The position numbers were made by a program, and so were the translations under genes. DNA of 64,000 nt from a virus. The stretch is taken from the IMG/VR virus record IMGVR_UViG_3300044844_000928; one strand, 5' to 3'. A model generated the notes under the pieces. That model did no database searches and was not told where the DNA came from. It worked only from the letters and a program-made list of their open reading frames with translations. This document shows, piece after piece, positions 34,316 to 62,882 of this stretch (position 1 is its first letter; every line of letters begins with the position of its first letter).

Positions 34316-35056
34316 TTACCAACTATATGTCAGATTTTTGCATTTGTCAAAATGCCATCTTTTCATTACAATTTCACCTCCACTTTTACCACAATGAGGA
34401 CATGTAACTTGTTGCTTATGTTTACCTTTGTGAAAAACAGACATTTTGGCTTTTGTTTCTTTTGATCTAGGCTTACGCATTTTGACTTTAGTTTCTTCTG
34501 AGCAAGGTTTTCTAGGTTTACCTTTATCTGAGCGTGGTTTATGTAGTTTTCTAGGTTTACTTGATTTTTTATATTGACCACGTTTTTTGCCTTTCATATT
34601 AGCCTTAGCTTCTTCTGAAAGAGGTCCTCGAGGTTTACGCATTTTGGCTTTAGTTTCTTCTGATTTACGCATGTTAGCTTTAGCTTCTTCTGATCTAGGC
34701 TTACGCATATTAATCTTAGCTTCTTCTGAACGTTTTGTGCCAGGAGGGCATCCATCTAATCCATTTTCTGGTTTCAAGTTTGCCCATTCTTTAGAATTAA
34801 CTATGTCGTTATCAGCAGAAAACTGTAAGGCTACTTCGACGATAGAAGTATCATAATACAAATCAGAAACCCAAAGAGTAACGATGTGTTCTTTACCGTG
34901 TTTCTTGATATGGCGAACCCAATATGGACCAGAACCATTATAGGTGTATGGATCTAAATTTGTTGTCTTACCGTAGTATTTCTTTTTGGTTATGGAATGC
35001 TGTTTGATGTAAAGATATGTAGGTGTGATGGGAGTATAAATACTTGTGCTGGTCAT
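34316..35056 (-). CDS. Putative homing endonuclease (GIY-YIG-like, NUMOD3-type repeats, C-terminal zinc finger)
   Basis: YLYIKQH..KYYGKT..Y.GSG..W; SEE.K.KMR repeats; CPHC..RWHFD.C; start at MTSTSIY (35056). Confidence 0.75.
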   Translation of the reverse strand: MTSTSIYTPITPTYLYIKQHSITKKKYYGKTTNLDPYTYNGSGPYWVRHIKKHGKEHIVTLWVSDLYYDTSIVEVALQFSADNDIVNSKEWANLKPENGLDGCPPGTKRSEEAKINMRKPRSEEAKANMRKSEETKAKMRKPRGPLSEEAKANMKGKKRGQYKKSSKPRKLHKPRSDKGKPRKPCSEETKVKMRKPRSKETKAKMSVFHKGKHKQQVTCPHCGKSGGEIVMKRWHFDKCKNLTYSW

Positions 35057-35147
35057 GTTAGTTCTCGTAATTAATGAAAGGATGATTAGTGCTACTGGGG
35101 ACGGCAATCCCGCGAGTAGCTTTTTTTGTACAAAATATTTAGTAAAA
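35034..35147. repeat. Nuclease-associated cassette, copy 1 (convergent late promoters plus structured RNA)
   Basis: GTATAAATACTTGTGCTGGTCATG...ATGATTAGTGC-hairpin-TTTTTTTGTACAAAATATTTAGTAAAA; recurs at 49986 and 52085. Confidence 0.9.
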
Positions 35148-35204
35148 ATAATGCTCTATATTTTCAACCCTACCTTACCTACAGGGTCACCAATTTAATT
35201 TTAC

Positions 35205-35290
35205 GTTTTTTGTAAGTCATTGATTTCATTAGCTTTTATTTTTATCCCTAATTTTAATAAACCGTTATAAATCAATGACTTACGAAAAAC
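35205..35290. promoter_or_regulatory. Inverted repeat (21/22 match, 42-bp spacer); each arm matches the IHF consensus
   Basis: GTTTTTTGTAAGTCATTGATTT and AAATCAATGACTTACGAAAAAC; AATCAATGACTTA fits WATCAANNNNTTR. Confidence 0.7.
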
Positions 35291-35354
35291 CTAGATAAAA
35301 ATTATAGATAAAATAGAAAAGTCTAGCTTTTTATATTTGATGAAAAATAATTTA

Positions 35355-35412
35355 AAATAAAGCTTTACTTTTACAAAAATCATAGTATAATAGATCTTAA
35401 TGAAGTTAAACC
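35355..35412 (+). promoter_or_regulatory. Class B early promoter (AAAATAAAGCTTTACT-16-TATAATAGATCTTAATGAAGTTA)
   Basis: Near-identical copies with -35 boxes at 35364, 37134, 52203, 53490, 55161 and 61896; resembles T4 early promoters. Confidence 0.85.
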
Positions 35413-35427
35413 TTAATGGAGTGTAAT

Positions 35428-36476
35428 ATGAAAAACAAATTATTGATTGCGGCGTTAGCCTTAACTATCCCTTCTGTTGGGGTTGCACATGAAAATGATT
35501 GGATAGCACCTGCTATAATCGGCGGTGTTATTCTTGGGTCAGTATATAGTCAACCTGTGGAAAGAGATGTTGTTATCTTACGTGAAAGGGAATATGGATA
35601 TGGATATAGAGAGTATGAAAGAAGAGAAATGTTAAGAGAACAAATTAGAGAAAACCAATTAAGACAGCGTATGCTTGAGCGTAGAGAATATGAACTATAC
35701 AGATGGTAAAATAAAAGGTGGGTACAATTATGATGATTTAACAAAGGAAAAGGTTTTAAACAGTCCTTTGTTAAGAAAAAGTCATGTTCATTTACCTAAG
35801 AAAAAACGAACCCGTGAGATTGAAGACGGGATTAAAGCTTACTTGCGCGGTGATTATGAATAAGATAAAAAACATCAGTGTGAGTGATATAAACGATATT
35901 TCTAGTTTGTTACAGAAATTCCCTGAAGTACAGCATATTGATTTATTACATACAGATACAACCGGCATCGGATATACTTTGCATGTAAAATTTGAATATC
36001 AGGTTAACGGTATTATGACAGAATTGACCATTCCGGTCGTTGATGAATCTAATTGGTAAATTTGAGGATTATATTATGATAGAAATTGGCTATAACCTTG
36101 CGTCAACGCTTAAAGCAGCAATGGGTTGCGGAATTGTAGTTTACGCTATTTACACAGTGTCAAATTTGTTGAACGGGTATCTACCATTAAATACTAGTGG
36201 AAGTAAAAATGTCACGAGCAAAATTACTCCCAAAACTAAAGAGGTTACTCAACCGTGAGTAACATTATTTCAACCCTACAATGGGATTTTTCAATTATGA
36301 AAAAAAGCGAGTATTATACAATTTACACCAACGGGTTAGCCTTTATTGGTGTTCTGTTGATGATAACCGGTATTGAACCAATTTTAGGAGCATATATTGC
36401 GCTATTTGGTGTTGGTATGTTTTTTATCCAAGTAGCACAGATAAGCCTTAAAATTCCTCTTTCTATGAAGGGTTAA
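35428..36476 (+). CDS. Cluster of five small early hypothetical ORFs; the first has a signal peptide and the last is a membrane protein
   Basis: ORFs ending at 35709, 35863, 36059, 36258 and 36476, closely packed behind an early promoter. Confidence 0.5.
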
Positions 36477-36477
36477 A

Positions 36478-36990
36478 ATGGCAAATTTTGTTGCAAATCA
36501 GCATAATGTGAATCCGTTAAGTGCGTCTGGATTTACATTCAGCATCCAGAAAATACCTGAATTAACTTACTTTGCTCAACAAGTAACGTTACCCAGTGTG
36601 TCTTTACCTCCAGCTGAAATTCAAACTCCTCTATCTACTTTTTATACATCAGGGGTCAATCTTCAGTATTCAGACTTGACTGTTAGCTTTATAGTAGATG
36701 AAGACATGAGCAACTATCTAGCTATTTATAAATGGATGGTTGGGTTAGGGTTTCCCGAAGCAAGAATCCAGTTTAGCGATTTTATCGCGGGGAGTAATTT
36801 GAATGAAGTATCTGATGGTAATTTACAAATTTTATCTTCATCTAATAATGTGATTCGAAATATAGTGTTTTATGATTTACGACCGATAGATTTAGGTGGG
36901 TTGACTATGGTTACAAACCAGTCAGATATTACCTATCTAACCTGCGACGTGACGTTTAATTATAGTTTCTTCAAGTTTGAAACCCTATAG
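36478..36990 (+). CDS. 3: Tail completion/tube terminator gp3-like protein
   Basis: N.LS.SGF.F..P.L.YF.Q...LP..F.VDEDM.NY..IY.WM; near gp23, uvsY and uvsW. Confidence 0.8.
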   Translation: MANFVANQHNVNPLSASGFTFSIQKIPELTYFAQQVTLPSVSLPPAEIQTPLSTFYTSGVNLQYSDLTVSFIVDEDMSNYLAIYKWMVGLGFPEARIQFSDFIAGSNLNEVSDGNLQILSSSNNVIRNIVFYDLRPIDLGGLTMVTNQSDITYLTCDVTFNYSFFKFETL

Positions 36991-36994
36991 CAAA

Positions 36995-37022
36995 AAAAGC
37001 CGGCTTAATTGTCGGCTTTTTT
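36995..37022 (+). terminator. Terminator family AAGCCGGC-n-GYCGGCTTTT
   Basis: Related hairpins at about 50821, 53352 and 55109. Confidence 0.8.
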
Positions 37023-37038
37023 GTACCTAAAATAAAAC

Positions 37039-37098
37039 TTTACTTTATATCTTCAAACACGTATAATAGCCTAGTCGGGCGTGAATTGAGGTTAAGCG
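37039..37098 (+). repeat. Class A element, copy 3
   Basis: TTTACT at 37039, TATAAT at 37062, 31-mer at 37068-37098; a class B promoter follows at 37134. Confidence 0.9.
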
Positions 37099-37206
37099 CT
37101 TAAAAATATTTTAGGTTTTATTAAAAATAAAGCTTTACTTTTCCATAAAACAAAGTATAATAGATCTTAATGAAGTTAAACCTATAACGTTATTGGAGTG
37201 TTTAAT

Positions 37207-38076
37207 ATGATTAAGTTTGAAAGAATTAACCGTACTGTTGATGGTAACCCAAGAGTTGTTTGCCATTTTCTTACGTTCATTAAAGAAAGTGATGGGTATG
37301 ATATTGACGCTACTTATAACATTGCGTTATCAAGAGCCAAAAAGATAGGCGGTAAAAAGCACAGCAACAAATCTTATGGCGGCGGTATCGCTTTTATATG
37401 TTTTAATGAAGCTGAATTAGAATCTAAAATTAACGAATTAATGTCTAATATCTAATTGGAGAATACCATGACTGAAGCAACTACTTTACCACTATCTGAA
37501 GTATTCATCAACTCTTTCCCTGTTGAACAAAGAAAACACGTTAAACAAGTGATTTATTCTAAGCTTAAATTTAAGACTTCTAAAGGTAAAGATTTAGAAT
37601 ATTTTGCGTGCGATTTTATTGACGCTAACATCAAACTTGGTGCCAAAGTTGAGGTTTATATCGATGAATATGGAGTAGAACAGCGCGGTATGTTAAACAA
37701 AATCTTTGAAGGCGATCTTAATGAAAATGAAGAAATGCCAAGTATTTGTTTTGATTACGCTGAGCGCGTTATCCGTTCATACAAAAGAAAGGCTACTGCA
37801 AAACGTAAAGGCAAATAAATGGATAACAAATCACTTTTTCTGTATAGATTATGGCAAATTGAACGAAGCGGCTACGATACATACGATTCTATGGTCGTAT
37901 CTGCATATTCTGAGGAAGAAGCTAAAGAAATTCATCCTAGCAGACAATATGGAGGAAGATGGGGTTCTGGTGTTTGGGCATATTCTCCTGATACTGTTAA
38001 TGTTGAAATTATCGGGTTAGCCTATAAAGGAATCAAACCAAACGAAATTATTATATCTTCATTCAACGCCGGCTAA
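37207..38076 (+). CDS. Three early hypothetical ORFs (37207-37455, 37468-37818, 37819-38076)
   Basis: Contiguous ORFs behind a class B promoter; the first two have GGAG RBSs. Confidence 0.55.
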
Positions 38077-38125
38077 ATCAGAAATCCTTATATATAATTC
38101 ATTATAGAATATATGAGGATTTTTA

Positions 38126-39484
38126 ATGTCGAACGGCACGCTTTATGTTGAAAAACTGAATGAAGCCTTTATTAAGATAACAGCTGATGATTTTGGTATA
38201 GAATCTGAATTGTATGAATACTTCTCATTTTTTGTTCCTGGATATAAATTTATGCCACTTTTCCGTAACAAAATTTGGGATGGAAAAGCACGGTTATACG
38301 ATATTCATAAAAAGCTGTTACAGACCGGTTTAATAGGATATGTTGAAAAATTCGCAGATATTAATGAATACACTATATCATACAAAAATGATGTAAAAGA
38401 ACAAAACAATTATCCACTTGAATTGGTAAACAATTTTTGTTCTGCATTAAAGCCACACGCAAGAAGCAAACCTATTGACTTTAGACATTACCAACTTGAC
38501 GCGGTACATAAGGCGCTTAATCTTAATAGATGTATTCTTGTGTCACCAACGTCATCTGGTAAGTCTTTAATGATTTACAGTTTAATTCGTTGGTATATTA
38601 ACGCCGGTAAAAGATGTTTGATTATCGTTCCATCAACAACCTTAGTTGAGCAAATGTATTCTGATTTTCAAGATTACTCAAGCCATAATGGGTGGAGTGT
38701 AGATGCTAACTGTAACAAAATCTATTCAGGGTTTACTAGAGAATTTAAACATAACTGTGCTATTTCAACATGGCAAAGTTTGTACAAATTAAAGCCTAAA
38801 GACCTTGAAAATATAGATGTTGTTATCGGAGATGAGTGCCATACATACGCGGCTAAATCAGCTTCAACTTTGCTGAATAATATGCCAGATGTAAAATACA
38901 GATTTGGCACAACAGGAACGCTTAATGGTAAAAATATATCAGAACTACAATTAACCGGCTTATTTGGTGAAGTTTATAAGGTAATAACAACAAAAGAGTT
39001 GATGGATAATAAAGAAGTCACTCCATTAAACATTAATTGCCTTATATTAAATCACCCTAAAGAATCTAAAGACTTATGTAAAAAAATAGAATATCAAAAA
39101 GAAATTAAGTTTTTAACGTTAGACAGTAAGCGAAACAAATTTATCTCAAATTTGACATTGTCTTTAGACGGCGTTACTTTGATTCTGTTTAACTATATAT
39201 CACACGGAAAGGCAATATTAGAGCTGTTAAAAGATAAAGGTTCTGACAGAACGATACATTATGTTTCCGGCGAAGTTGATACCGCTGAACGAAATGATAT
39301 TCGTAATTTGCTGAATTCAACTAAGAAGTCTAGAAAGGTTTACTTTGGTGAGGCATATCTAGTGATTGCCGATAATGAAGATGTAGTATTAACCGGCGGC
39401 GCTATTATAAAGGGTAAAGATTTGACATTAGATAATGATATTGATAATTCTTGGATTAAATCTAAGAAACTACATAAGGAGTGA
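38126..39484 (+). CDS. uvsW: UvsW-like SF2 helicase, N-terminal part only (lacks motifs V and VI)
   Basis: FFVPGYKFMP..WDG; SPTSSGKS; DECH; GTTGT; sequence diverges after SGEVDTAERNDIR. Confidence 0.85.
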   Translation: MSNGTLYVEKLNEAFIKITADDFGIESELYEYFSFFVPGYKFMPLFRNKIWDGKARLYDIHKKLLQTGLIGYVEKFADINEYTISYKNDVKEQNNYPLELVNNFCSALKPHARSKPIDFRHYQLDAVHKALNLNRCILVSPTSSGKSLMIYSLIRWYINAGKRCLIIVPSTTLVEQMYSDFQDYSSHNGWSVDANCNKIYSGFTREFKHNCAISTWQSLYKLKPKDLENIDVVIGDECHTYAAKSASTLLNNMPDVKYRFGTTGTLNGKNISELQLTGLFGEVYKVITTKELMDNKEVTPLNINCLILNHPKESKDLCKKIEYQKEIKFLTLDSKRNKFISNLTLSLDGVTLILFNYISHGKAILELLKDKGSDRTIHYVSGEVDTAERNDIRNLLNSTKKSRKVYFGEAYLVIADNEDVVLTGGAIIKGKDLTLDNDIDNSWIKSKKLHKE

Positions 39485-39486
39485 AA

Positions 39487-40023
39487 ATGAACATCTGGCT
39501 TACTTCGGATTTGCACTTTGGGCATCACGGAATGTGTAAATTTTTAAATTATGATGGGAGTAAACTTAGACCATGGGATTCAATCGAAGAAATGGATGAA
39601 GTTTTGGTTGAAAGGTTCAACGAAAGGGTTAAACCAGAAGATAAATGTTACATTTTAGGTGATGTTGCTTTAAACTTGAGAGCGCTACCTATGTTAGAAC
39701 GGCTGAACTGTAAAAATTTGCGGTTGATTAAAGGGAATCATGATATTTTCAAATTGGACAAATATCTACCTTACTTTAAAGACATCAGGGCATATCATGT
39801 TATCGATAATATGCTACTTGGGCACATTCCCGTTCATCCGGATTGTTTAGGGCGGTGGGGATTTCAAATTCATGGACATTTACATAATGAAGTTGTACTT
39901 TTACCGGACGGAACTCCAGATAATAGGTATATGAACGTCAGTGTTGAAAGAACTGATTTTTACCCTATTTCGTTAGATGATATAATTGAAGAGAGAAAAA
40001 GACGTGGCATTCACGAATCATAA
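39487..40023 (+). CDS. Calcineurin-like metallophosphoesterase
   Basis: SDLHFGH, LGD, GNHD, HGHLH motifs. Confidence 0.9.
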   Translation: MNIWLTSDLHFGHHGMCKFLNYDGSKLRPWDSIEEMDEVLVERFNERVKPEDKCYILGDVALNLRALPMLERLNCKNLRLIKGNHDIFKLDKYLPYFKDIRAYHVIDNMLLGHIPVHPDCLGRWGFQIHGHLHNEVVLLPDGTPDNRYMNVSVERTDFYPISLDDIIEERKRRGIHES

Positions 40024-40345
40024 CACTAAAGATGAAACAGAACCAAAAGACCTATCCTCAGTTGGAAGAAAATTTGATACTGGAAAGGTTAAATACAGAT
40101 TGTTAAGTCCATATTTCATAGAGGGTGTTGGTTCTATACTAACAAGCGGCGCTGAAAAGTACGATGAAGATAATTGGTTAATCGTACCAGATGCTAGAAA
40201 ACGTTATACTGATGCGTTATTACGACATGTGTACGATTACCTTAAAGGTGATAAAAATGATGACGAAACAGGCAAATCCCATTTACTCCACGCCGCATGT
40301 AATTTAATGTTTTTGTATGAGTTTGATGAACGGGGTATTGAATGA
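40004..40345 (+). CDS. DUF5664-like dATP/dGTP diphosphohydrolase domain protein
   Basis: GRKFD.GK..Y.L..GA.KY..DNW..D.ETG.SHL.HA.CN..FL. Confidence 0.8.
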   Translation: MAFTNHNTKDETEPKDLSSVGRKFDTGKVKYRLLSPYFIEGVGSILTSGAEKYDEDNWLIVPDARKRYTDALLRHVYDYLKGDKNDDETGKSHLLHAACNLMFLYEFDERGIE

Positions 40346-41210
40346 AATCCTCAGTAAGATATACCGGTAAAAACTTCAAAGCTTTATCAGATTTAATTCA
40401 CGACCACTGTAAACATGGGTCTATGGTTTACCGTAGAGGTGACGATGTTTTGATTGACGATATGATTATTCCTGTTGGATACTGTTTACATGTTGAAACG
40501 TCAGAACAAAGTGAACGGGTTTATATTAGCGCAGATTATTAAAAAAAGCTTTACTTTTTGCCCTCTCACGAGTATAATTGCTATTGTAGTTTAAATTTAT
40601 TATTAATTTTTGAGGTGATACCATGATTAGCGAGAAAGACGAATTGTTTTCGATTATTACTCCAATGCGTAAATCAAGAGAGCATTTGAACCGTAAAGTT
40701 AGGATTGACATGAAACGCGATAGATTCTATACATATAGAAAAATCCATTACGGCGATAGAATCCGTGTTGTTAACACTAATCCAATGGGGAGATAATATG
40801 AGCCTTATTACGCTTTCTGTTATAAATAACAACAAAAACCTTACGCTAGAAGCGGTTCGTCAACCTTATAAAATTGTTTTACGTGTTGAGGGTGATGTTT
40901 CTGATAACTTAGAAGGTATCGTTTACAACGACCTGTTTGAAGTTAATGCTGAAGATGATGCTACATACGAAAAAGCGATTGAGTTTTTAACCCGAAACAA
41001 ACTGGACTTCAAGGTGAAATTTTGAAAACATTTATATTATTGATTACAACTATGACGCATATAAACGGCGGCTATGACGTAAAAATTACGTCAACTGAAT
41101 TAAATAACGCATTAACATGTGAAAACGCCTTAAAAATTGAAAAGACTATTCTTGCTAGCATGTTCAGCGATATTTCAGGTTCGTATACATTACAGTGTAT
41201 TCAAAAGTAG
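40342..41210 (+). CDS. Small hypothetical ORFs (40342-40542, 40798-41025, 41022-41210)
   Basis: ORF track; a TTTACT-17-TATAAT promoter lies at about 40550-40578. Confidence 0.45.
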
Positions 41211-41271
41211 ATTTTACTTTTGACGCAAAATCATTTATTATATATTTTTATTTACATTACTAAGGAACATT

Positions 41272-41931
41272 ATGAAATTGTCAAAAGAAACCCAAGCAAT
41301 TCTAAAAAACTTTGCGTCTATTAATCCTAATGTGATGCTAAAACCTGGAAACAAACTTTCTACGGTTTCAGTACAAAAAAACATTATGGCTGATAGTGCT
41401 ATTGCTGAATCATTTGATACCACTTTTGGTATCTACGATATTTCAGAGTTCTTGGGTGCGGTTTCTTTGTTTAACGATCCTGAGTTGACATTTAACGATA
41501 AATATGTCACTATTGCTGAGGGCAATAACTCCATTAAATATTACTCAGCGGCTGAAAACGTTTTAACCGTACCGACTAAAGAAATTAAATTTCCTGATGC
41601 AGATATTGAGTTTGAGTTAACCGACAGTATGCTTGATATGATTAATCGTACAGCATCGGTATTGAAAGCGCAAGACTTAGCCTTAATTGGCGATGGCAAT
41701 AAGATTGTTATCCGAGTCGGCGATAAAAAGGTTGATTCGTCTAACGTGTATGAAGTTGAAGTTGGTTCCACTTCTACCACATTTAAAGTTTACCTAAAAA
41801 TTGGTTTGTTAAAATTAGTACACGGCGATTATACCGTATCTATCTCGACTAAAAAGATTTCAAGATTTAAACATAAAACCAAAGATACCGTGTATTTCCT
41901 TGCGGTTGAGTCAGATTCTTCATTCGAGTAA
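41272..41931 (+). CDS. 45: Sliding clamp gp45
   Basis: MKLSKET..ILKNFASIN, FGIYD..EFL. Confidence 0.95.
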   Translation: MKLSKETQAILKNFASINPNVMLKPGNKLSTVSVQKNIMADSAIAESFDTTFGIYDISEFLGAVSLFNDPELTFNDKYVTIAEGNNSIKYYSAAENVLTVPTKEIKFPDADIEFELTDSMLDMINRTASVLKAQDLALIGDGNKIVIRVGDKKVDSSNVYEVEVGSTSTTFKVYLKIGLLKLVHGDYTVSISTKKISRFKHKTKDTVYFLAVESDSSFE

Positions 41932-42001
41932 GATAGCCGGCTTGAAGCTGAGCCGATAATCAGCTTCAATTGTTTATTATGATATTATTGAGGATACATT
42001 T

Positions 42002-42952
42002 ATGAGTTTAGTAGCAAAACCAGAAGAATTCTTGTACGTTGAAAAATACCGTCCATCTAAAATTGAGGATTGTATTTTACCTGAACGAATGAAACAAACA
42101 TTAAAAGATATCGTGAAACAAGGCGAGATTCCTAATATGTTATTTTCAGGCGGCGCGGGTACTGGTAAAACTACAGCAGCATTTGCGCTTTGTAATGAAT
42201 TAGATGCTGACGTTTTATTCATTAACGCATCTATGGAGTCTGGTATTGATGTTCTTAGAAGTAAAATCCAATCATTTGCTTCTACTGTATCATTTGGCGG
42301 TGGCACTAAAGTTGTTATTCTTGATGAAGCTGACGGCTTAAACGCTAATTCTTTTCAGCCAGCATTGCGTGGTTTTATTGAAACTTTCAGCGCTAACTGT
42401 AGATTTATTCTTACTTGTAATTTTCCTCAAAAGTTGATTGCACCTATTCATTCAAGATGTACGGCTTTGAACTTCACTATTGAAAAAAGTGAGAAACAAG
42501 AGTTAGCGGCTAAATTCTTTAAAAGAGCATGTGCTATTCTTGTTGAAGAAAAAGTTGAATACGACCCAAAGGTGGTGGCTGAGGTTATTACTAAATTCTT
42601 CCCAGACTACCGTAGAGTTCTTAATGAATTACAGCGTTATTCTGTATCAGGTAAAATTGATTCTGGTATATTGTCTAACTTCAGTGATGATTCTTATAAA
42701 GCATTAATCGGCTATATAAAAGAAAAAAACTTTACTGAAGCTCGTAAATGGGTAGGTATGAATGATATTGATTGTGTAGAGTTATTCAGACATTTTTATG
42801 ATTATTCATCGACTTTGGTTGAGCCTAATTCTGTTCCTCAGTTGATTTTAATTATGGCAGACTATTCATATAAATCTGCTTTTGTTGCCGACCAAGAGTT
42901 AAATATCATGGCGGCGCTTACTGAAATTATGTCAAGTGTAAATTTCAAATGA
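42002..42952 (+). CDS. 44: Clamp loader large subunit gp44
   Basis: VEKYRP, GTGKTT, ILDEAD, SRC motifs. Confidence 0.96.
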   Translation: MSLVAKPEEFLYVEKYRPSKIEDCILPERMKQTLKDIVKQGEIPNMLFSGGAGTGKTTAAFALCNELDADVLFINASMESGIDVLRSKIQSFASTVSFGGGTKVVILDEADGLNANSFQPALRGFIETFSANCRFILTCNFPQKLIAPIHSRCTALNFTIEKSEKQELAAKFFKRACAILVEEKVEYDPKVVAEVITKFFPDYRRVLNELQRYSVSGKIDSGILSNFSDDSYKALIGYIKEKNFTEARKWVGMNDIDCVELFRHFYDYSSTLVEPNSVPQLILIMADYSYKSAFVADQELNIMAALTEIMSSVNFK

Positions 42953-44147: not shown

Positions 44148-44164
44148 CCTTTTGGAATGACTAT

Positions 44165-44347
44165 ATGCTGATTACATTAGAATTACCTGTTGAAGAAGTG
44201 AATTTTATCCTTGAAATGCTTTCTGAAGAACCTTATCGTGATGTTAGTGAAATTATCGCTAAAATTCAACATCAGGGTCGTCCTCAAGTAGAAGCCGCAG
44301 AATTAGCGGCGGCTCAAGAAGAACAAGCTGAAGTAACTGAAGAATAA
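44165..44347 (+). CDS. Small acidic hypothetical protein
   Basis: L...PY..V..II.KI..Q..PQ pattern seen in phage proteins. Confidence 0.5.
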   Translation: MLITLELPVEEVNFILEMLSEEPYRDVSEIIAKIQHQGRPQVEAAELAAAQEEQAEVTEE

Positions 44348-44445
44348 ATAAAATGGAATAAAGGTTAGCGCCTTTATTTCTTAATGACATACTTAGATTG
44401 TGTCATTAAGAAATACTTTCCATCAAAATAGGATTATATATTACA

Positions 44446-44799
44446 ATGAATAAAATGCCACAGCTAATTGCTTTATTGTTTGATGCTAGAAATAAAGCAC
44501 ATATTGCACATTTACAAACAACAAGTTTTTCTCAACATAATGCGCTAAAGGAGTTCTACAGTGCAGTTATTGACATTGCGGATTCGCTTGCGGAAAATCA
44601 TCAAGGGAGAAATGGGATTATTAATGATTATCCTGTTGTTAATAACCCTAGTGATGCAGTCCAGTTGGTTTCTACCTTACGTTCTTGGGTAGATGCTAAT
44701 CGTGCTGATTGTGGGTCAGAAAATGAAATTCAAAACATTATAGATACTTTACAATCTTTGAACAACGAAACTTTGTATAAGCTAAACAACTTGAGATAA
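44446..44799 (+). CDS. Ferritin/Dps-like four-helix protein (DUF5856-like)
   Basis: AH..HLQT.S...H.AL..FY....D...E..QG; NIID.......YKL..L. Confidence 0.7.
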   Translation: MNKMPQLIALLFDARNKAHIAHLQTTSFSQHNALKEFYSAVIDIADSLAENHQGRNGIINDYPVVNNPSDAVQLVSTLRSWVDANRADCGSENEIQNIIDTLQSLNNETLYKLNNLR

Positions 44800-44803
44800 C
44801 ATT

Positions 44804-45049
44804 ATGAATATTTTTTCTAAAATCGGTCACGCTGTTAAACATGAAGCTGAAGCAGTTGGCAATGGCGTGGTTGATATTGCTACCGGTGTAGCGGCTAAAA
44901 CTGCTTATGATGCTATTGTATCAACTGGTACAGCCGCTGTAGAAGGAACTGTTGCCGCCGCTGGTACTGTAGCTGAAGTTGCTGGTAGCGCGGAAACTAT
45001 CGCGGTTTTGACAGAAGTGGGTGAAGTAGCGGCGATTGCTGCTCTTTAA
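44804..45049 (+). CDS. Ala/Val-rich hypothetical protein
   Basis: ORF track. Confidence 0.5.
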   Translation: MNIFSKIGHAVKHEAEAVGNGVVDIATGVAAKTAYDAIVSTGTAAVEGTVAAAGTVAEVAGSAETIAVLTEVGEVAAIAAL

Positions 45050-45056
45050 ATAAAAC

Positions 45057-45085
45057 TTTACTTTATTGTGTAAATAAATTATAAT
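45057..45085 (+). promoter_or_regulatory. Sigma70-type early promoter for the ncRNA/tRNA cluster
   Basis: TTTACT-17-TATAAT with an A-rich UP element. Confidence 0.75.
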
Positions 45086-45109
45086 ATACCTGTAGTTTGA
45101 GTTAAAGAG

Positions 45110-45727
45110 TTTTGGTAGCCTAGTCGGTTTGGATCGGGGTTACTATCAAAATTGGAAGCACTACCAATTAAAAGTGGCAAATGTATGTTCTGCGGAAAGC
45201 CTTAAAGCACAAAAAAGAACTGACAGTTTGGAAAGACAAACATTATGAAGCATAAGTATTACATTCTAGTCGGGTTTGTGGTCGTACTAGGCAGCACATG
45301 TAACTCCGTAAATACTTATGACTTGATAGTTGATGCGTAGGCTGATACGCACCGATGTGATGTAAGAGGGGAATAAGGCTATACGTTAATCCTTATTAAG
45401 CTGGAGTTCAGCGCCGGTAACTATCAATCTCCTTAGCCTGCTGGGAGAATAATAAGGCAGGAGTGTACCGAACCAGCTTGTGCACAGCGAGTGGACTGGT
45501 GACAGCTTGGAAAGACAAGCACTATGAATGATTGGTATTGTGCCGAGCGTGAAGATGCCCACTAGATAAGCGTGAGACTTGTAAAATCCCGCCAGTATCA
45601 ATGATTGATAGTTATTGCGTAGGCTGATACGCGCGGGAATTGACATCGCTTAATTGAACAGGGGAGCATACTAGGTTGCTCACTGGCAGAACCTTCTGCA
45701 AGCCGGAGATCAGCACCGGCAACTATC
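45110..45727 (+). ncRNA. Cluster of putative structured ncRNAs (two ~280-nt tandem units)
   Basis: No credible ORF, GC-richer than flanks, repeated scaffolds with compensatory changes (see findings). Confidence 0.75.
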
Positions 45728-45736
45728 TAAATTTAA

Positions 45737-45810
45737 GCGCCTTTAGCATAATTGGTTAATGCCGCGAACTCATAATTCGTAAGATCGGGGTTCGAGTCCC
45801 TGAGGGCGCA
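45737..45810 (+). tRNA. tRNA with CAT anticodon (Ile2 or elongator Met); CCA not encoded
   Basis: GCGCCTT/AGGGCGC acceptor stem, GCGAA-CTCATAA-TTCGT anticodon arm, GTTCGAG T-loop. Confidence 0.88.
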
Positions 45811-45916
45811 AAATTTTATATTAAATAAGTGTAGTTAGGTTGATATTCCCGTACCAACCAACTCAGTTACGGATTACCGAGCTGTCCTACACAAATTTAT
45901 ATATACGGATAAAAAT

Positions 45917-46615
45917 ATGTTCTACTTAGTTTATAAAATCACAAATAATATAAATCAAAAATATTATATTGGGTGTCATAAAACTACTAATGTTGATGAT
46001 GGGTATATGGGTTCTGGTGTGCTAATAAAAAGAGCAATATCTAAGTATGGAATAGAAAATTTCACTAAACAGATATTACATTACTGCTCAACTTCTGAAG
46101 AAATGTTTACTAAAGAATTTGAATTAGTTACTATTACAGAACAATCTTATAATTTAAAACTAGGTGGAAACGGCGGGTTTAACTATATTAACACACATAA
46201 TCTTAATAAACCAGAAAATTGGTGTTTAGAATCTGTTATTAGACACAAAAAAGGTTGTAAAAAAGGCGGCATTAAAAATAAAACTTTAGGTACTGGAATA
46301 TTTGGATTATCTTTTAAACAAAAATCTGAAATTGGTAAAAAGGCAAATGCAGCTACCCAATTAAAATTAATGGATACTATAGGATATAAATCTGTATTTG
46401 GTATATTAAACAAAGATGAAGAATTCCAATTAAAAAGAAAGGCTAAATTTTGTGAAATAGACCACCAAAAAGGTAATAAAAATTCACAATATGGCACTAT
46501 GTGGATTACAAATGGCGAATTTAATAGTAAAATTACAAAAGGATTAGATTTACCAGATGGGTGGATATTAGGCAGAAAAATTGGATTGCCATCTATTAAA
46601 ATTAGTTTAAAATAA
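45917..46615 (+). CDS. Seg-like GIY-YIG homing endonuclease
   Basis: YLVYKITN..N.KYYIG.H..Y.GSG..E; YNLK.GG; YGTMWITNG; sits in a tRNA cluster like T4 segB. Confidence 0.85.
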   Translation: MFYLVYKITNNINQKYYIGCHKTTNVDDGYMGSGVLIKRAISKYGIENFTKQILHYCSTSEEMFTKEFELVTITEQSYNLKLGGNGGFNYINTHNLNKPENWCLESVIRHKKGCKKGGIKNKTLGTGIFGLSFKQKSEIGKKANAATQLKLMDTIGYKSVFGILNKDEEFQLKRKAKFCEIDHQKGNKNSQYGTMWITNGEFNSKITKGLDLPDGWILGRKIGLPSIKISLK

Positions 46616-46722
46616 TGTTGCGGCAGTAGGTCAGCTCCGCGTTAAAAACCGAAATAACCAAACTGATGTTGTATTGTGGCGATAGGCTAGTCCCACGTTA
46701 AAAACTGAAATAACCAAACTGA
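46616..46722 (+). repeat. Tandem pair of hairpin plus A-rich tail units
   Basis: CGTTAAAAACYGAAATAACCAAACTGA occurs twice, each behind a covarying stem (GCGG/CCGC and GTGG/CCAC). Confidence 0.8.
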
Positions 46723-46727
46723 ATATT

Positions 46728-46803
46728 CTCTCTGTAGTGTAGTCTGGTAACATGATGCGTTTGGGGCGCATTGTCCGTCGTTCAAATCGACGCAGGGAGA
46801 CCA
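46728..46803 (+). tRNA. tRNA-Pro(TGG)
   Basis: CTCTCTG/CAGGGAG acceptor, ATGCG-TTTGGGG-CGCAT anticodon arm, TTCAAAT T-loop, CCA. Confidence 0.9.
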
Positions 46804-46809
46804 AATTAT

Positions 46810-46884
46810 TCCATCTAACGCACAAGGTGTGCGACCGGACTGTTAATCCGTGTGAGCGCGATTCGATTTCGTGAGATGGAGCCA
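46810..46884 (+). tRNA. tRNA-Asn(GTT)
   Basis: TCCATCT/AGATGGA acceptor, CGGA-CTGTTAA-TCCG anticodon arm, TTCGATT T-loop, GCCA end. Confidence 0.85.
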
Positions 46885-46890
46885 AATAAC

Positions 46891-46964
46891 GCCGGTATAG
46901 TATAATGATAATACAATTGACTTGTAATCTTTAAATCACAGTTTGATTCTGTGTACCGGCTCCA
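46891..46964 (+). tRNA. tRNA-Thr(TGT), atypical and possibly degenerate
   Basis: GCCGGTA/TACCGGC acceptor and CCA, but two mismatches in the anticodon stem, no GG in the D-loop and a TTTGA T-loop. Confidence 0.7.
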
Positions 46965-47119
46965 AATACCTGCGTTGGTTCTTACTTTTCGCTATTTTTG
47001 TAAGATTTAATAGGGGGAGACGTAGGATAAAAACATACTGTTTTAGTATGTTTTTTAAATAGCTAACTTGATTTGAATTTAACAAATTCTATTTTAATAT
47101 CCTTTTTTTGGAGAATAAC

Positions 47120-47878
47120 ATGTCAGCTACAATTGAAACTGTAAAAGCAGAAGCTAAAGAATCTTCACTTTTGAATAAAAAAGCTATGCTATTTGGTGCG
47201 TCATTATATATTGTGTTTTATGGATGGGTTCGTTGGTATGAAGGGGTTTACGGGTGGTCTGCTGGTTTAGACTCGTTTGCTCCAGAGTTTGAAACATACT
47301 GGATGAACTTCTTATACATAGAAATGGTTTTAGAGGTATTAACCGCGTCAATTTTATGGGGTTATATCTGGAAAAGTCGTGATCGTAAAGTGATGTCAAT
47401 CACACCACGTGAAGAATTGCGTCGTCATTTCACACATTGGGTATGGTTGGTAATGTACGGTATCGCAATTTATTATGGAGCATCATATTTTACTGAACAA
47501 GATGGTACATGGCATCAAACAATTGTTAGAGATACCGACTTTACTCCAAGTCATGTTATTGAGTTCTATTTAAGTTATCCGATTTATATTATTACTGGTG
47601 TTGCTTCGTTTTTATATGCTAAAACTCGTTTACCAACCTACCAAAAAGGCTTACCATTACAATATATGGTATCTGTAATTGGTCCATTTATGATTCTTCC
47701 AAACGTAGGTTTGAATGAATGGGGTCACACTTTCTGGTTTATGGAAGAATTGTTTGTTGCTCCTTTGCATTATGGATTTGTATTTTTTGGCTGGGCGGCT
47801 TTAGGCGTATTGGGCGTTGTTAATATCGAAGTAAAAGCAATTGCTAACTTATTGAAAAAAGACTTAGCTGTAGCATAG
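47120..47878 (+). CDS. pmoC: Particulate methane monooxygenase subunit C (auxiliary metabolic gene)
   Basis: GWSAGLDSFAPEFETYW; EQDGTWHQTIVRDTDFTPSH; PNVGLNEWGHTFWFMEELFVAPLHYGFV; ATG at 47120 behind a GGAG RBS. Confidence 0.98.
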   Translation: MSATIETVKAEAKESSLLNKKAMLFGASLYIVFYGWVRWYEGVYGWSAGLDSFAPEFETYWMNFLYIEMVLEVLTASILWGYIWKSRDRKVMSITPREELRRHFTHWVWLVMYGIAIYYGASYFTEQDGTWHQTIVRDTDFTPSHVIEFYLSYPIYIITGVASFLYAKTRLPTYQKGLPLQYMVSVIGPFMILPNVGLNEWGHTFWFMEELFVAPLHYGFVFFGWAALGVLGVVNIEVKAIANLLKKDLAVA

Positions 47879-47886
47879 CTATGTGG

Positions 47887-47921
47887 ATAGCGAATAGGGA
47901 ATAAAATCTCTATTCGCTATC
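47887..47921 (+). terminator. Hairpin after pmoC
   Basis: GATAGCGAATAGGGA-ATAAAA-TCTCTATTCGCTATC. Confidence 0.7.
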
Positions 47922-47962
47922 TCATACCCTAAATAATTCTATAGATGATTAAAGGAAAATTT

Positions 47963-48472
47963 ATGGAATTAAACGAAAAAAAGAACCCTCTTAGTTTTAA
48001 ATGCTGGAGAGATAAGCATAAAGAAGGAACTAAGATGAAAGGCGGTAAATTGGTTAACAACTGCGTGCCTAATGAAAGTTTTGAATTATCTTCTGACGAA
48101 ATGTTTGATATGATTGAAAGCACCATTGAAGAATACGCAAGCGAAAACGGGTTTACCAGTGAATATATTTGGGATATATTTGATGTCGTTAGCGATGACG
48201 AATTATTAGAATATGCGATTGATGCGAAAGGTCACAAAAGCTCTACTGGTGGGTTGACGCAAAAGGGCGTTGATGCGTATAGAAAAGAAAATCCAGGAAG
48301 TAAATTACAAATGGCGGTAACAACTCCACCTAGTAAATTAGATCCTGATAGCAAAGCAGCAAAAAGACGCAAAAGCTTTTGTGCCAGAATGAGTGGTGTA
48401 TCCGGACCAATGAAAGATAAAAATGGCAAACCAACAAGAAAGGCGTTAGCCTTAAAGAAATGGAATTGCTAA
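47963..48472 (+). CDS. Conserved T4-like late protein (GGL..KG...Y..RRKSFCARM family)
   Basis: CW....GTKMKGGK.V.NCVP and RRKSFCARM.G motifs; late promoter at 47929. Confidence 0.65.
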   Translation: MELNEKKNPLSFKCWRDKHKEGTKMKGGKLVNNCVPNESFELSSDEMFDMIESTIEEYASENGFTSEYIWDIFDVVSDDELLEYAIDAKGHKSSTGGLTQKGVDAYRKENPGSKLQMAVTTPPSKLDPDSKAAKRRKSFCARMSGVSGPMKDKNGKPTRKALALKKWNC

Positions 48473-48500
48473 AATAGTAGGCGGTAAAACGTTACTAAAT

Positions 48501-48638
48501 AGGTTTGGACAGTTCTACGTCAACGGAACTGACCGTGTAGCAATAGAAGCTACCATCCTCAATACGATAAGTTGAGCCACTTTAAACCTGTGTTGCCATT
48601 AGGAACACAATTCTTGCTTTTTATAAAGGAGATTTTAT
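48501..48638 (+). promoter_or_regulatory. Structured hsp20 5' UTR with a ROSE-like thermometer hairpin
   Basis: Cloverleaf at 48501-48589; CTTGCT lies opposite the AGGAG SD (48613-48631). Confidence 0.65.
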
Positions 48639-49055
48639 ATGACACATCCAATTTTAGTATTAAAAGAAATACAAAACCAAATCGCTAGACAGGAAAAGGT
48701 TAATTATCCACCATACAATATTAAATATGTGGACGATTTTAATACCGTTGTAGAAATAGCGCTTGCCGGCTTATCGGAAGATGATATTTCAATCTTGCTA
48801 GAAAAACAGGTTTTAACAGTTTCTTATTCTGCTAAAACTGATGCAGCTGAATCAAAATATTTTCATAAGGGTATTAGCTCAAAATCATTTAGTCGTAGCT
48901 TTACGCTAGACGTTGATTCTGTAGTCAAAGGTGCTGATATGAATAATGGTTTACTAAGTATCTATATTAACAAAGTTATCCCAGAAAGTTTAAAACCAAA
49001 ACAAATTCTGATTAATAACAAATCTAATCCTCAATTATTAACTGAAGCGAAATAA
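48639..49055 (+). CDS. hsp20: Small heat-shock protein Hsp20 (IbpA-like)
   Basis: NYPPYNI, EIALAG, HKGI..KSF.RSF.L, A.M.NGLL.I. Confidence 0.93.
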   Translation: MTHPILVLKEIQNQIARQEKVNYPPYNIKYVDDFNTVVEIALAGLSEDDISILLEKQVLTVSYSAKTDAAESKYFHKGISSKSFSRSFTLDVDSVVKGADMNNGLLSIYINKVIPESLKPKQILINNKSNPQLLTEAK

Positions 49056-49060
49056 ACTAT

Positions 49061-49369
49061 ATGACTACAACTGTAATTGCTCTAAAATTAACAACCGGTG
49101 AAGACGTTTTAACCCGTTTGGAATCTGAGGATGAATTTGAATATGTGACTTCATACCCTGCGTATGTAAGTATCGGCACAAACCCAGATGGTCAATCTGG
49201 CGTACAAATCGCGCCGTTTATTGCGTTCGCTGTTGACGGCAAAGTGAAAATTAAAAAATCTGCGGTTGCGGCTGAAGCTGAACCAGATTCTAAACTTGCA
49301 GATGAATATACAAAATTGTTTCATCCTGGCACTATACAGTTGGTTTCGAACGGTAAAATTATTGTTTAA
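49061..49369 (+). CDS. Conserved T4-like hypothetical protein (Sm-like)
   Basis: LKL.TGEDV N-terminus; typical position after hsp20. Confidence 0.6.
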   Translation: MTTTVIALKLTTGEDVLTRLESEDEFEYVTSYPAYVSIGTNPDGQSGVQIAPFIAFAVDGKVKIKKSAVAAEAEPDSKLADEYTKLFHPGTIQLVSNGKIIV

Positions 49370-49393
49370 TGATAAACATAATTGACTAATTTT

Positions 49394-49431
49394 AAAAGGT
49401 TCACAGTTTAATTGCTGTGAACCTTTTTTTT
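49394..49431. terminator. Bidirectional terminator
   Basis: AAAAGGTTCACAG...CTGTGAACCTTTTTT between convergent genes. Confidence 0.8.
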
Positions 49432-50008
49432 ACTTTATTTTGCAGTTGTCAAAATGCCATCGTTTCATTACACTCACTCCACCAGTTTTACCGCAATGTG
49501 GACATGTTATTTGTTTTTTCGGTTTACGCATTTTGGCTTTAGTTTCTTCTGATTGAGGTTTACCCTTATTAGCAGCAGATATTTTGGCTTTATGCTCATC
49601 TGACTTAGGTTTGCGCATTTTGACTTTAGATTCTTCTGTGTGCATTTTACCCTTTTTAGCTTCAGACATTTTGGATTTAGTTTCGTCTGTATGTTTCACA
49701 CTTCCGCCATCCAATCCATTTTCTGGCATCATATTTGCCCATTTTTTAGAATTGACAATATCGTTTTCTGCAGAAAACTTTAAGGCGAATTCAGCGATAG
49801 ATGTGTCTGTGTAAGGTTCCGAAACCCAAAGAGTAACGATGTGTTCTTTACCGTGGACTTTGATGTGGTTACACCAGTATTTGCCTGAGCCATTGTATGT
49901 GTATGGGTCTTTTATTGTTTTCCCAAAATACTTTAAGCCGGTTATGGAATGTTGTTTGATATAGAGATAGGTGGGATCTATTGCGGTATAAATACTTGTG
50001 CTGGTCAT
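49430..50008 (-). CDS. Putative homing endonuclease, paralogue of 34316-35056
   Basis: PTYLYIKQHSITGLKYFGKT, NUMOD3-type repeats, CPHC zinc finger. Confidence 0.75.
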   Translation of the reverse strand: MTSTSIYTAIDPTYLYIKQHSITGLKYFGKTIKDPYTYNGSGKYWCNHIKVHGKEHIVTLWVSEPYTDTSIAEFALKFSAENDIVNSKKWANMMPENGLDGGSVKHTDETKSKMSEAKKGKMHTEESKVKMRKPKSDEHKAKISAANKGKPQSEETKAKMRKPKKQITCPHCGKTGGVSVMKRWHFDNCKIK

Positions 50009-50096
50009 GGTAATTCCTTTTATCGTTAGAATGATTAGTGCTGGTGGATATGGGGATATCGCGACCAGCTTTTTTTGTACAAAATATTTAGTAAAA
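49986..50096. repeat. Nuclease-associated cassette, copy 2
   Basis: Same scaffold as 35034-35147, with compensatory stem changes. Confidence 0.9.
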
Positions 50097-50127
50097 TACT
50101 AATTTTAACTTAACATATGGAAATTGT

Positions 50128-50817
50128 ATGGCAACCACAAGCAAAATTAAAAAATCTCGTCAAACTGCTCCTACTTTTGAACTTGACGAATTACAACCTG
50201 CCGAAATTGTTACCTTAACACATAACCAAAAACGCTACCTGAATTCGATAAAAACAAACGTATTGACTTTTGGTACAGGTTCTGCTGGAACAGGTAAGTC
50301 TTATGTTGCTATTGCTTACGCCGCTGAATTATTAAAAGCCAAAAAGATTAATAAAATTGTTCTCACTAGACCTATTCAAGAAGCTGGTGAACATTTAGGA
50401 TTTCTTCCAGGAGAATTAGAAGAAAAAACCTTGCCATATCTTCAGCCAATGTTGGATATTTTAAACAAAAGATTAGGCGCTTCTTTTACTGAATATTTGT
50501 TCAAACGGAAAATTATTGAATTTAGACCGTTAGCCTATATGCGAGGAAGTACATTTGAAGACAGTTTTATTATTCTTGATGAAGCACAAAATGTGAGTCC
50601 AGTTTCTATGAAAATGTTTTTATCAAGAATTGGAGAAAATAGTAAAGTTGTAGTTGATGGCGACATTCAACAAAAAGACATCAAAGGTGCTTCTGGTTTA
50701 TCTGATGCTGTTGATAGGTTGAAACATCTGAATAATGTAGGATGGGTTAATTTTGATATTGATGACATTGTTAGATCAGGTATCTGTAAAGATATTGTAA
50801 TTGCGTATTCCAATTAA
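50128..50817 (+). CDS. phoH: PhoH-family ATPase
   Basis: GSAGTGKS, LGFLPG, MRGSTF, LDEAQN, GD..Q.D, DIVRS. Confidence 0.95.
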   Translation: MATTSKIKKSRQTAPTFELDELQPAEIVTLTHNQKRYLNSIKTNVLTFGTGSAGTGKSYVAIAYAAELLKAKKINKIVLTRPIQEAGEHLGFLPGELEEKTLPYLQPMLDILNKRLGASFTEYLFKRKIIEFRPLAYMRGSTFEDSFIILDEAQNVSPVSMKMFLSRIGENSKVVVDGDIQQKDIKGASGLSDAVDRLKHLNNVGWVNFDIDDIVRSGICKDIVIAYSN

Positions 50818-50868
50818 AACAAAGCCGGCATAATAGCCGGCTTTTTTACACGTAAATTATTTTGTAAT

Positions 50869-52107
50869 TTACTGGCAATTGATTGGTATCCCATATTCTT
50901 TTACGAAATTTTTATCTAGGTAAATATTTATGTTTTTGTCAATTCTATAAAATTTAATCCTATTTCCATTTGGTGTAAATAATTTTACGTGTATAGTATC
51001 ATCGTAATCATTTGGATGTATATCTAATAATGATTTTAGCTGTGTGTGATAAACTATAATGCATTTATTTTTGGTTGGATCATAATCAAAATATCCAGGA
51101 GGATTTGGGCACATTTTATTTACAAATTTAAACTTCCCATTAATATCATATTTTCTAATTCCAATATTTCTTGATACAAACGGTTGTATGTGGTGTGCAT
51201 TAATATCTAATGGGTCTATCATTTCAAATTGATTAGATAAAATATTATAAAACAATGTAGAATAATTTTTTTCTTTATAGCGGCGCAGACGTTTTCTTTT
51301 TTCTGGTGTTAATACTACAGCTGGATATTTTTTTGATTTACGAGTTGCTGATATTTTAGCACCTATACGTTTCTTGTGCTCATTTGATCTATTTGCCCAT
51401 ATTTTTGTAACAATGTCACTTAAAATTTGTTTTGATTTTGTTATTGTCCAACCATCAAATAAAAGACGTTCGTATTCATCTGAATACTTAAACACTTCTA
51501 TTTCATTTTGCTCATAGTATAATTTTATTTTTGTGGTTTTTGAATGATAGCATTTCAGACTTGTTGATGTTAATTCTTTAGATGTTTCTGTTCTTGGTTT
51601 ATATGTTCTGCCTGTTGACATTGATACAAATTCTTTAGATACAACTCTAGGATCTGTTACTGAGCAATAAAATATAGCTCCATTGTTGTCAATATACGCG
51701 GCTTTACCTTTAGTGGATGTAGAACAATTTTGTGAAAATTCTATTTTAAAATTTTCATAAATTTTTGAATGTACATTATATGTGCGTTTTCTTGAATCTT
51801 TTGGCGATTGTTTGTTGCACATTGCCCAAAAGGCAAAAATTTGTGATCCTTTGTATGTTTTTGCTAATAAGTAATGAGCAATATAATGTTGTCGGTGTGT
51901 TAAATTTACAGCGTTCCATTTATTTGATTTGAATGATGCATATTCAGGAAAAAGATCATTTGCCTTTGGACAAATGTGATGTTTTTGTGTCTTATATTTT
52001 ATTGGAGGTTGATTGACATAATTTGATATAAATTTTATATATCTATTAAGATAATGTTGATTGTGTGGTTTGCTTGATAATATGGTATAAATACTTGTGC
52101 TGGTCAT
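50869..52107 (-). CDS. Putative HNH homing endonuclease (Mob-like)
   Basis: HHICPK...N.V.LT.RQHYIAH.LL; start at MTSTSIY (52107). Confidence 0.78.
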   Translation of the reverse strand: MTSTSIYTILSSKPHNQHYLNRYIKFISNYVNQPPIKYKTQKHHICPKANDLFPEYASFKSNKWNAVNLTHRQHYIAHYLLAKTYKGSQIFAFWAMCNKQSPKDSRKRTYNVHSKIYENFKIEFSQNCSTSTKGKAAYIDNNGAIFYCSVTDPRVVSKEFVSMSTGRTYKPRTETSKELTSTSLKCYHSKTTKIKLYYEQNEIEVFKYSDEYERLLFDGWTITKSKQILSDIVTKIWANRSNEHKKRIGAKISATRKSKKYPAVVLTPEKRKRLRRYKEKNYSTLFYNILSNQFEMIDPLDINAHHIQPFVSRNIGIRKYDINGKFKFVNKMCPNPPGYFDYDPTKNKCIIVYHTQLKSLLDIHPNDYDDTIHVKLFTPNGNRIKFYRIDKNINIYLDKNFVKEYGIPINCQ

Positions 52108-52195
52108 GGTAGATCCTTTTATCGATAGAATGATTAGTGCCACTGGGATGTAGGAGTCCGCGAGTGGCTTTTTTTGTACAAAATATTTAGTAAAA
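52085..52195. repeat. Nuclease-associated cassette, copy 3
   Basis: Same scaffold, here attached to an HNH gene. Confidence 0.9.
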
Positions 52196-62874: not shown

Positions 62875-62882
62875 AATAAAAC

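Follow-up and report, generated by a model that had tools for sequence, protein, structure and literature searches.

We found that a cassette occurring three times in the window (the whole stretch of 64,000 nucleotides from IMG/VR virus record IMGVR_UViG_3300044844_000928) belongs to a large phage RNA family that is missing from Rfam and without a description in searchable papers. Each copy covers the 5' end of a homing endonuclease gene and consists of two late promoter boxes facing each other across two hairpins, P1 and P2. The hairpins covary, and the strand on which they fold is antisense to the gene; the embedded promoter is conserved independently of coding, and the family keeps a close association with nuclease genes. 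A preliminary description of this DNA had proposed cis-antisense control over the ribosome-binding site (RBS), and antisense folding, covariation and promoter conservation apart from coding make this the likeliest function. We therefore consider it probable that the cassette specifies a sar/CopA-type cis-antisense RNA of about 70-80 nt, for which we predict transcription, kissing with the mRNA and a block of nuclease translation.

All three copies of the approximately 110-bp unit reported earlier (35034-35147, 49986-50096 and 52085-52195) were recovered, with a mean column identity of 83%. A 17-mer with the plus-strand box occurs exactly three times, as compared with an expectation of 0.47 even when three mismatches are allowed. 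The reverse open reading frames (ORFs), with ATGs at 35056, 50008 and 52107, all start with MTSTSIYT, and the nuclease types were those described before: two match phrog_314, a Seg-like homing endonuclease family, and KVP40 SegD, and the third matches the HNH families phrog_12434 and phrog_655. Their predicted architecture, GIY-YIG or HNH with a NUMOD-type tail in an intergenic location, is that of free-standing homing endonucleases (seg, mob). All three genes are inverted relative to the neighbours on both sides, the first relative to the gp23 operon and to the genes beyond 35416.

Four degenerate-pattern scans of IMG/VR gave at least 120 matches each, and the family counts given here come from the matches listed. 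Structure-based extraction yielded at least 282 distinct elements. A covariance model built without the window copies found all three of them (43-49 bits, E 4e-8 to 8e-7) and nothing further within the window. The same model detected up to 13 copies in each of several jumbo-phage genomes of 330-360 kb, two copies in the cultured Sinorhizobium phage phiM9, both upstream of annotated homing endonucleases, and copies in Rhizobium phage RHph_I1_18 and, with weaker matches, Agrobacterium phage Atu_ph04. The boxes are altered on both sides in the copies of phiM9 (KP881232.1, 28169-28248 and 14763-14852) and Atu_ph04 (MF403007.1, 41250-41331 and 102918-102993). A different late promoter consensus is possible in phiM9, since it has no gp33 and codes for an RpoE-like sigma factor (PMC4621102). 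In agreement with the expected novelty, Rfam searches of the window and the loci at gathering and E-value thresholds returned only tRNAs. No cultured phage was matched directly by blastn with the window or canonical forms, KVP40 and the Vibrio phages SRILMA and 1.081.O gave no family match, and the nearest virus record, a 38-kb fragment, contains no cassette copy. Bacterial genomes gave 14 real matches, all in contigs of metagenome-assembled genomes and mostly short, which are probably mis-binned phage DNA. A description of the family was not found in the literature, and an unnamed listing among the 10,000 viral RNA candidates of PMC10690425 is possible.

In a scan that did not require it, the plus-strand late box was present inside the first codons in 66 of 75 elements, as compared with 24 of 4464 control windows. 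A facing minus-strand box positioned for the gene was found in 163 of 166 elements, as expected from the preliminary description. By T4 promoter geometry, the two predicted start sites fall at the outer hairpin ends. The start codon lies at three offsets from the left box (120, 16 and 10 cases), which give MxIY, MYL and MIF starts. Since it is the DNA box and not the peptide that is conserved across these three reading frames, the common first residues of the proteins follow from the promoter sequence, and the cassette accounts for the common MxIY start of many phage nucleases. On its own, the motif TATAAATA shows no enrichment in the window (15 versus 12.5 expected), the signal being its position, and a ACTAAATA variant is also found upstream of other genes in this phage. 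As in sar-type systems, an antisense promoter is thus predicted inside the opening codons of the target gene, from sequence boxes that belong to two promoter classes (see the antirepressor branch below).

It is rather unlikely, in our view, that the embedded promoter stands in for one that the insertion displaced and serves the following phage gene, with the hairpins acting as a stabilising leader or a leaky terminator. Such an arrangement would make the nuclease gene hard to delete, as with the promoters inside T4 segG. A same-strand gene does follow 176 of 250 cassettes at a median gap of 46 nt, phoH lies about 40 nt after copy 2, and embedded promoters are known in T4 seg/mob genes (PMC2988022). 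However, the left box is kept equally with and without a same-strand gene following (84/106 versus 39/48, p=0.83), as is the tail, and promoter supply to the neighbour is therefore a side benefit at most. Moreover, 69 of 258 have their own sigma70-like promoter just downstream, the window copies end in U7, and the kissing-type loops and the antirepressor branch would be left unexplained.

On the strand opposite to the gene, the order of elements is late box, 3-6 nt, P1, one base, P2, U-rich tail and facing late box. P1 has a CUG/UAG base with a fixed G-U pair and holds the anti-Shine-Dalgarno (anti-SD) sequence within its loop, while P2 comprises 6 bp, a bulged G, one pair, a second bulged G, about 4 bp and a six-base loop. 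Both hairpins of the preliminary description are real, although as drawn they overlapped by two bases (GC); across the family, hairpin 1 has as its core an 8-bp CUG...UAG stem followed by the one-base junction. What was taken for a G/GCG internal loop is better read as two bulged Gs flanking one covarying pair (G-C in 246, G-U in 24 and A-U in 12 elements). The window copies do carry the T7 tract and, ahead of the minus-strand box, the palindrome, but both belong to this lineage rather than to the family: a T7 tail occurs in 6 of 282 elements, and the palindrome was rejected as a required part. Together with a longer P1 and a start codon shifted 9 nt upstream, the U7 tail and spacer palindrome make up the local traits of the window form. 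A plus-strand peptide was also considered and rejected, the plus-strand ATG frame being 47, 31 and 15 codons long in the three copies and the element length varying by single bases.

Since the search patterns fix bases, scans were run with each half left unconstrained. Both bulged Gs and the junction A were found in 53 of 53 elements when P2 was free, and the CUG/UAG base was kept in 20-21 of 21 when P1 was free. In the set of elements whose search pattern left the 3' arm free, the outer stem was examined separately: 982 Watson-Crick pairs, 14 G-U pairs, no A-C and no mismatches were counted, after four non-members had been removed by eye. In a model-fitted alignment, 98.9% of cells were paired and 15 of 19 pairs showed double changes, which extends to the family the covariation noticed among the three copies; slid controls gave 30-46% pairing. 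An unaided MAFFT alignment gave the same fold.

The invariant G identity of both bulges may leave room for a bound protein. One explanation built on this, which we regard as improbable, is that the nascent RNA binds RNA polymerase, as the HK022 put RNA does, or an RNA chaperone, and acts on transcription through processivity or interference with the facing promoter. The two stems with a one-base junction right at the predicted start are suggestive of this, as are the bulged Gs and the P1 base, and put RNA likewise has two stems with critical unpaired Gs (PMC9378689). However, the likeness, drawn from description, is one of outline only, put being defined by binding to the zinc-binding domain of RNA polymerase and by a triplex in stem I, put overlaps no RBS and has no swappable loops, and the hosts of the cassette family span alphaproteobacteria to cyanobacteria.

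The strand on which the hairpins fold was apparent from the wobble pairs. Under a rule permitting both G-U and A-C, P2 showed 2756 Watson-Crick pairs, 64 G-U and no A-C; the upper stem of P1 showed 87 G-U versus 6 A-C, and P1 was stabler on the antisense strand in 166 of 166 elements. As a G-U pair reads A-C on the other strand, this excess indicates that the folding strand is antisense to the gene, as had been claimed for the window copies. P2 also folds on the sense strand (mean -9.0 versus -9.7 kcal/mol on the antisense strand). An SD-like match of 4-6 nt is present in 249 of 258 elements, mostly 6-9 nt upstream of the start. Covariation and wobble asymmetry thus point to a two-hairpin RNA on the antisense strand that would cover the RBS, as in sar-type systems. 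The structure might instead act in the nuclease mRNA as an RBS-occluding leader, like those of I-TevI, segB and Aeh1 mobE, a mechanism known for T-even endonucleases. P2 folding on the sense strand is compatible with this, as is the SD, which in the predicted mRNA is unpaired to an extent of only about 45%. We nevertheless consider it very unlikely, as the wobble asymmetry favours the antisense strand, the late box lies outside the hairpin and the second promoter would be unexplained; selection for antisense folding rules out a T-even-type leader as the main function.

In 258 of 282 elements, a reverse ORF of 100 aa or more begins inside the unit, and nearly all of these ORFs are nuclease-like. 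They are mostly several GIY-YIG subtypes and two HNH types, with NUMOD3-only proteins and a few other nuclease-like proteins in addition; among 99 proteins the domains were NUMOD3 (36), HNH_3 (8) and GIY-YIG (4), and none was common to all. About 70% of the cassette nuclease genes are inverted relative to their neighbours. In two remnants (L285:698-794 and L284:3736-3818), the left box and nuclease ORF are lost while P2 and the right box are kept, and these copies are decaying. The same cassette thus stands before several unrelated gene families, in line with the portable module proposed earlier.

This extends beyond nucleases. Planktothrix phage PaV-LD gave three weaker matches (34-36 bits), and a targeted scan for this branch yielded 23 distinct, fairly closely related elements. 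Their P2 is unchanged (121 Watson-Crick pairs, 5 G-U, 0 A-C), and in P1 the first pair is G-C instead of C-G, followed by the same U-A and G-U pairs as elsewhere in the family. The genes behind them are antirepressor-like, KilA-N and phrog_32599 genes. Late boxes on the antisense side were found in 0 of 23, and a -10-like hexamer in 19 of 23 (control 12%); on the sense side a -10 was present in 23 of 23. The late boxes are thus replaced by sigma70-like -10 hexamers, the type of box following the phage. This branch argues against a nuclease cofactor, for real promoters and toward P22 sar/ant. The PaV-LD form matched no plasmid. In PaV-LD (HQ683709.1, 72097-72960), ORF099R (64 aa), which lies behind one cassette, and ORF100R, annotated as an anti-repressor, are apparently two pieces of a single antirepressor gene that related contigs have in whole form (255-266 aa). 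The suggestion that the nuclease uses the RNA as a cofactor or guide, despite the tight nuclease-gene association, did not hold up and now seems highly improbable, because the same RNA precedes unrelated nuclease families as well as antirepressor and KilA-N genes, with no protein domain common to all, and contains no variable guide segment longer than the loop.

The P2 loops are mostly 6 nt long, with a GC centre in about 90%. Among 179 six-base loops, CGCCAA ranked first (20) and UUGGCG third (14, on 14 different P2 stems). We found that 133 of the 179 also occur as the reverse complement, none as the complement and one as the reverse, a pattern expected if only loop-loop pairing matters; local inversion gives the same picture. 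The six-base GC-centred loop on a bulged upper stem is as in the kissing hairpins of CopA/Inc, and a YUNR motif on either strand is present in only 69 of 179 loops. Copies were also compared within genomes (109 copies in 22 genomes, two of which are close relatives). Identical stem pairs were above chance (161 versus 107 and 82 versus 48) across unrelated nucleases, which indicates that the cassette has been exchanged or converted among genes while loops stayed diverse. Avoidance of shared loops within a genome, that is, strict incompatibility, was not seen in this set (7 identical pairs versus 7.6 expected), and pairing across the start region is still possible between non-cognate copies, at -33 to -57 kcal/mol, as compared with about -110 kcal/mol for cognate pairs. 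That the hairpins are single-stranded DNA structures, serving as recombination or insertion sites that move the cassette, has very little probability: G-T is favoured over A-C in DNA as well, stems are more alike within than between genomes and template switching can produce loop inversion, whereas the promoter boxes are spaced from the two ends as expected for transcript starts and differ according to the sigma factor in use, and there is no associated recombinase.

Under the cis-antisense reading, the nuclease mRNA would start at the outer end of P2 and the two-hairpin RNA of about 70-80 nt would begin at the start codon on the other strand, both starts being placed by T4 promoter geometry. 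The complementary P2 apical loops of the two RNAs would kiss; the bulged upper stem would then unzip, and pairing would spread through P1 across the SD and AUG. Translation would thereby be blocked, probably with recruitment of RNase III, as judged from CopA, Inc and sar, and convergent transcription may increase the damping. Late expression of a toxic nuclease from its own promoter would in this way be kept capped by a cassette that can be swapped among unrelated genes.

Several observations weigh against this reading. The family sequences are related, and covariation was judged from pair counts set against slid controls. In most members the tail is only modestly U-rich, with about 5 T in 9 nt, the U7 form being confined to the lineage of the window copies, so that a discrete short RNA is not guaranteed outside it. 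Simple antisense pairing requires neither the two invariant bulged Gs nor the fixed CUG/UAG base of P1. As both promoters are of the late class, timing cannot explain control, and only their relative strength can. The RNA data are unstranded contigs from one freshwater metatranscriptome, a small share of the whole; contigs from relatives, including one of 113 nt, overlap the cassette without showing strand or ends, and were not used as evidence.

Beyond cis pairing, a more speculative possibility is that a dedicated protein binds the tandem bulged Gs and the P1 base, with the exchangeable P2 loop as an address code. If so, a dozen nucleases per genome could be tuned separately, comparable to plasmid incompatibility groups; alternatively, when another phage co-infects, its matching nuclease might be silenced by a resident cassette. 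For the open question of how phages live with many toxic homing endonucleases, the known answers come from T-even coliphages. A plug-in antisense cassette would be a different and apparently far commoner solution in environmental T4-like and jumbo phages. The two copies of phiM9, which grows on Sinorhizobium meliloti 1021, provide a cultured host system in which this model is testable.

The features of the three copies are listed in the table below.

Table. Positions of the cassette features and their nuclease genes in the window
Feature	Position	Strand	Remarks
Seg-like (GIY-YIG type) homing endonuclease gene	34316..35056	-	246 aa; NUMOD3-like repeats
Copy 1 late promoter box, predicted antisense promoter	35035..35042	+	within nuclease codons 5-8; putative activity
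Copy 1 hairpin P1	35049..35089	+	8-bp core over start codon; loop complements ribosome-binding region
Copy 1 hairpin P2	35091..35120	+	bulged Gs 35112, 35114; apical loop 35102-35107
Copy 1 U7 tract	35121..35127	+	predicted 3' end of ~81-nt RNA from near 35047 (both ends predicted)
Copy 1 ACTAAATA late box, predicted nuclease promoter	35136..35143	-	
Seg-like (GIY-YIG type) homing endonuclease gene	49430..50008	-	192 aa; NUMOD3; inverted between 102-aa gene and phoH
Copy 2 late promoter box (antisense)	49987..49994	+	
Copy 2 P1, P2 and U7	50001..50076	+	P1 50001-50038; P2 50040-50069 (loop 50051-50056); U7 50070-50076
Copy 2 predicted RNA	from about 49999	+	~78 nt
Copy 2 ACTAAATA late box (sense)	50085..50092	-	
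HNH homing endonuclease gene	50869..52107	-	412 aa; inverted between phoH and early operon at 52275
Copy 3 late promoter box (antisense)	52086..52093	+	
Copy 3 P1, P2 and U7	52100..52175	+	P1 52100-52137; P2 52139-52168 (loop 52150-52155); U7 52169-52175
Copy 3 predicted RNA	from about 52098	+	~78 nt
Copy 3 ACTAAATA late box (sense)	52184..52191	-	abuts early promoter of next operon

The window is that of a T4-like phage, with gp23, clamp and clamp loader, a family B polymerase, UvsW/UvsY, phoH, three tRNAs and pmoC/amoC. Since it carries a pmoC/amoC gene (47108-47878; PF04896, E 9e-123), the phage is of the pmoC-carrying kind, and its host is probably a methanotroph. The uvsY gene (33802-34239, minus strand) lies directly downstream of nuclease 1 and faces gp23, and a late box on the plus strand (34272) is directed into the nuclease 1 gene at its 3' end. 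A 35-nt inverted repeat at 35192-35303, 83% complementary with its arms 42 nt apart, is located between cassette 1 and the early promoter at 35342. An early-promoter unit is repeated on both strands at 7386-7467, 25409-25492, 37028-37118, 53384-53474 and 62872-62962, with 37 bases from the -10 box onward almost invariant. A second promoter class has six repeats (35342, 37112, 52181, 53468, 55139 and 61874), often in tandem with the first class. A co-oriented GIY-YIG gene at 45917 has a different leader (45820-45916), with a three-armed fold on the minus strand, two kissing-type loops, a closing stem end and tail as in the cassette family, a sense late box at 45822 and a late-like minus-strand box near 45896; the covariance model R1 does not match this leader.

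The layout is as given in the preliminary description, which did not, however, name its close known precedent, P22 sar/ant (RF00262). The two share an antisense promoter, predicted in the cassette, in the first codons of the target, ant in P22, and an RNA of about 70 nt, likewise predicted for the cassette, with two hairpins, the first with the anti-SD in its loop and the second with a six-base loop also seen in the family. In sar the second hairpin doubles as terminator, a role that it may also have in the window copies with their U7 tract. The PaV-LD branch, standing over antirepressor genes, even has the same context as sar. In contrast, sar has neither the CUG/UAG core nor the two bulged Gs, transcription reaches ant through arc from a distant promoter whereas the cassette has a facing promoter directly behind hairpin 2, and the main targets of the cassette, unlike that of sar, are homing endonucleases under T4 late promoters. 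RF00262 gave no match at the elements in PaV-LD, phiM9 and two jumbo genomes, nor in the window or loci, and the covariance model R1 does not match the P22 sar locus. Given the shared plan and this mismatch in both directions, we conclude that the cassette probably works like sar and is not a member of the sar family.

In the CopA/CopT system, as in the cassette, there is a recognition hairpin with a destabilised upper stem, which in CopA serves strand exchange. CGCCAA and UUGGCG are the kissing hexamers of the I-complex plasmid RNAI and its target, and RNAI/Inc shares with the cassette a recognition hairpin with that loop and the destabilised upper stem needed for strand exchange (PMC10724649). 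These RNAs serve plasmid rep genes under sigma70 promoters, whereas the cassette serves phage nucleases and regulators, with the loop in either orientation, and the CopA/Inc Rfam models gave no match in the searched window and loci. IS10 RNA-OUT and IS200 art200 are further cases in which a mobile element restrains its own enzyme, by means of a short RNA that comes from a convergent promoter and covers the RBS; both are dedicated to a single transposase, RNA-OUT consists of one hairpin, and neither shows a sequence match to the cassette.

The leader hairpins of I-TevI, segB and Aeh1 mobE form in the mRNA and enclose the promoter (Dassa et al. PMC2677866). They share with the cassette a late promoter and an RNA structure 5' of free-standing GIY-YIG/HNH genes, whereas the cassette structure is selected on the opposite strand, its boxes flank the hairpins and it has two promoters. 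All T4 endonuclease genes are co-oriented with their neighbours except segD (PMC2988022), in contrast to the predominantly inverted cassette nucleases. In another T4-like phage, cyanophage S-PM2, the antisense RNA CfrI lies over a homing endonuclease gene (PMC2984593); compared by description only, it is about 225 nt long, links psbA with one endonuclease and forms no repeated cassette. The class of mechanism proposed here is therefore already known, whereas the searched papers describe neither the family itself, nor its portable use on late-transcribed homing endonuclease genes, nor the connection with leaders of antirepressor genes.

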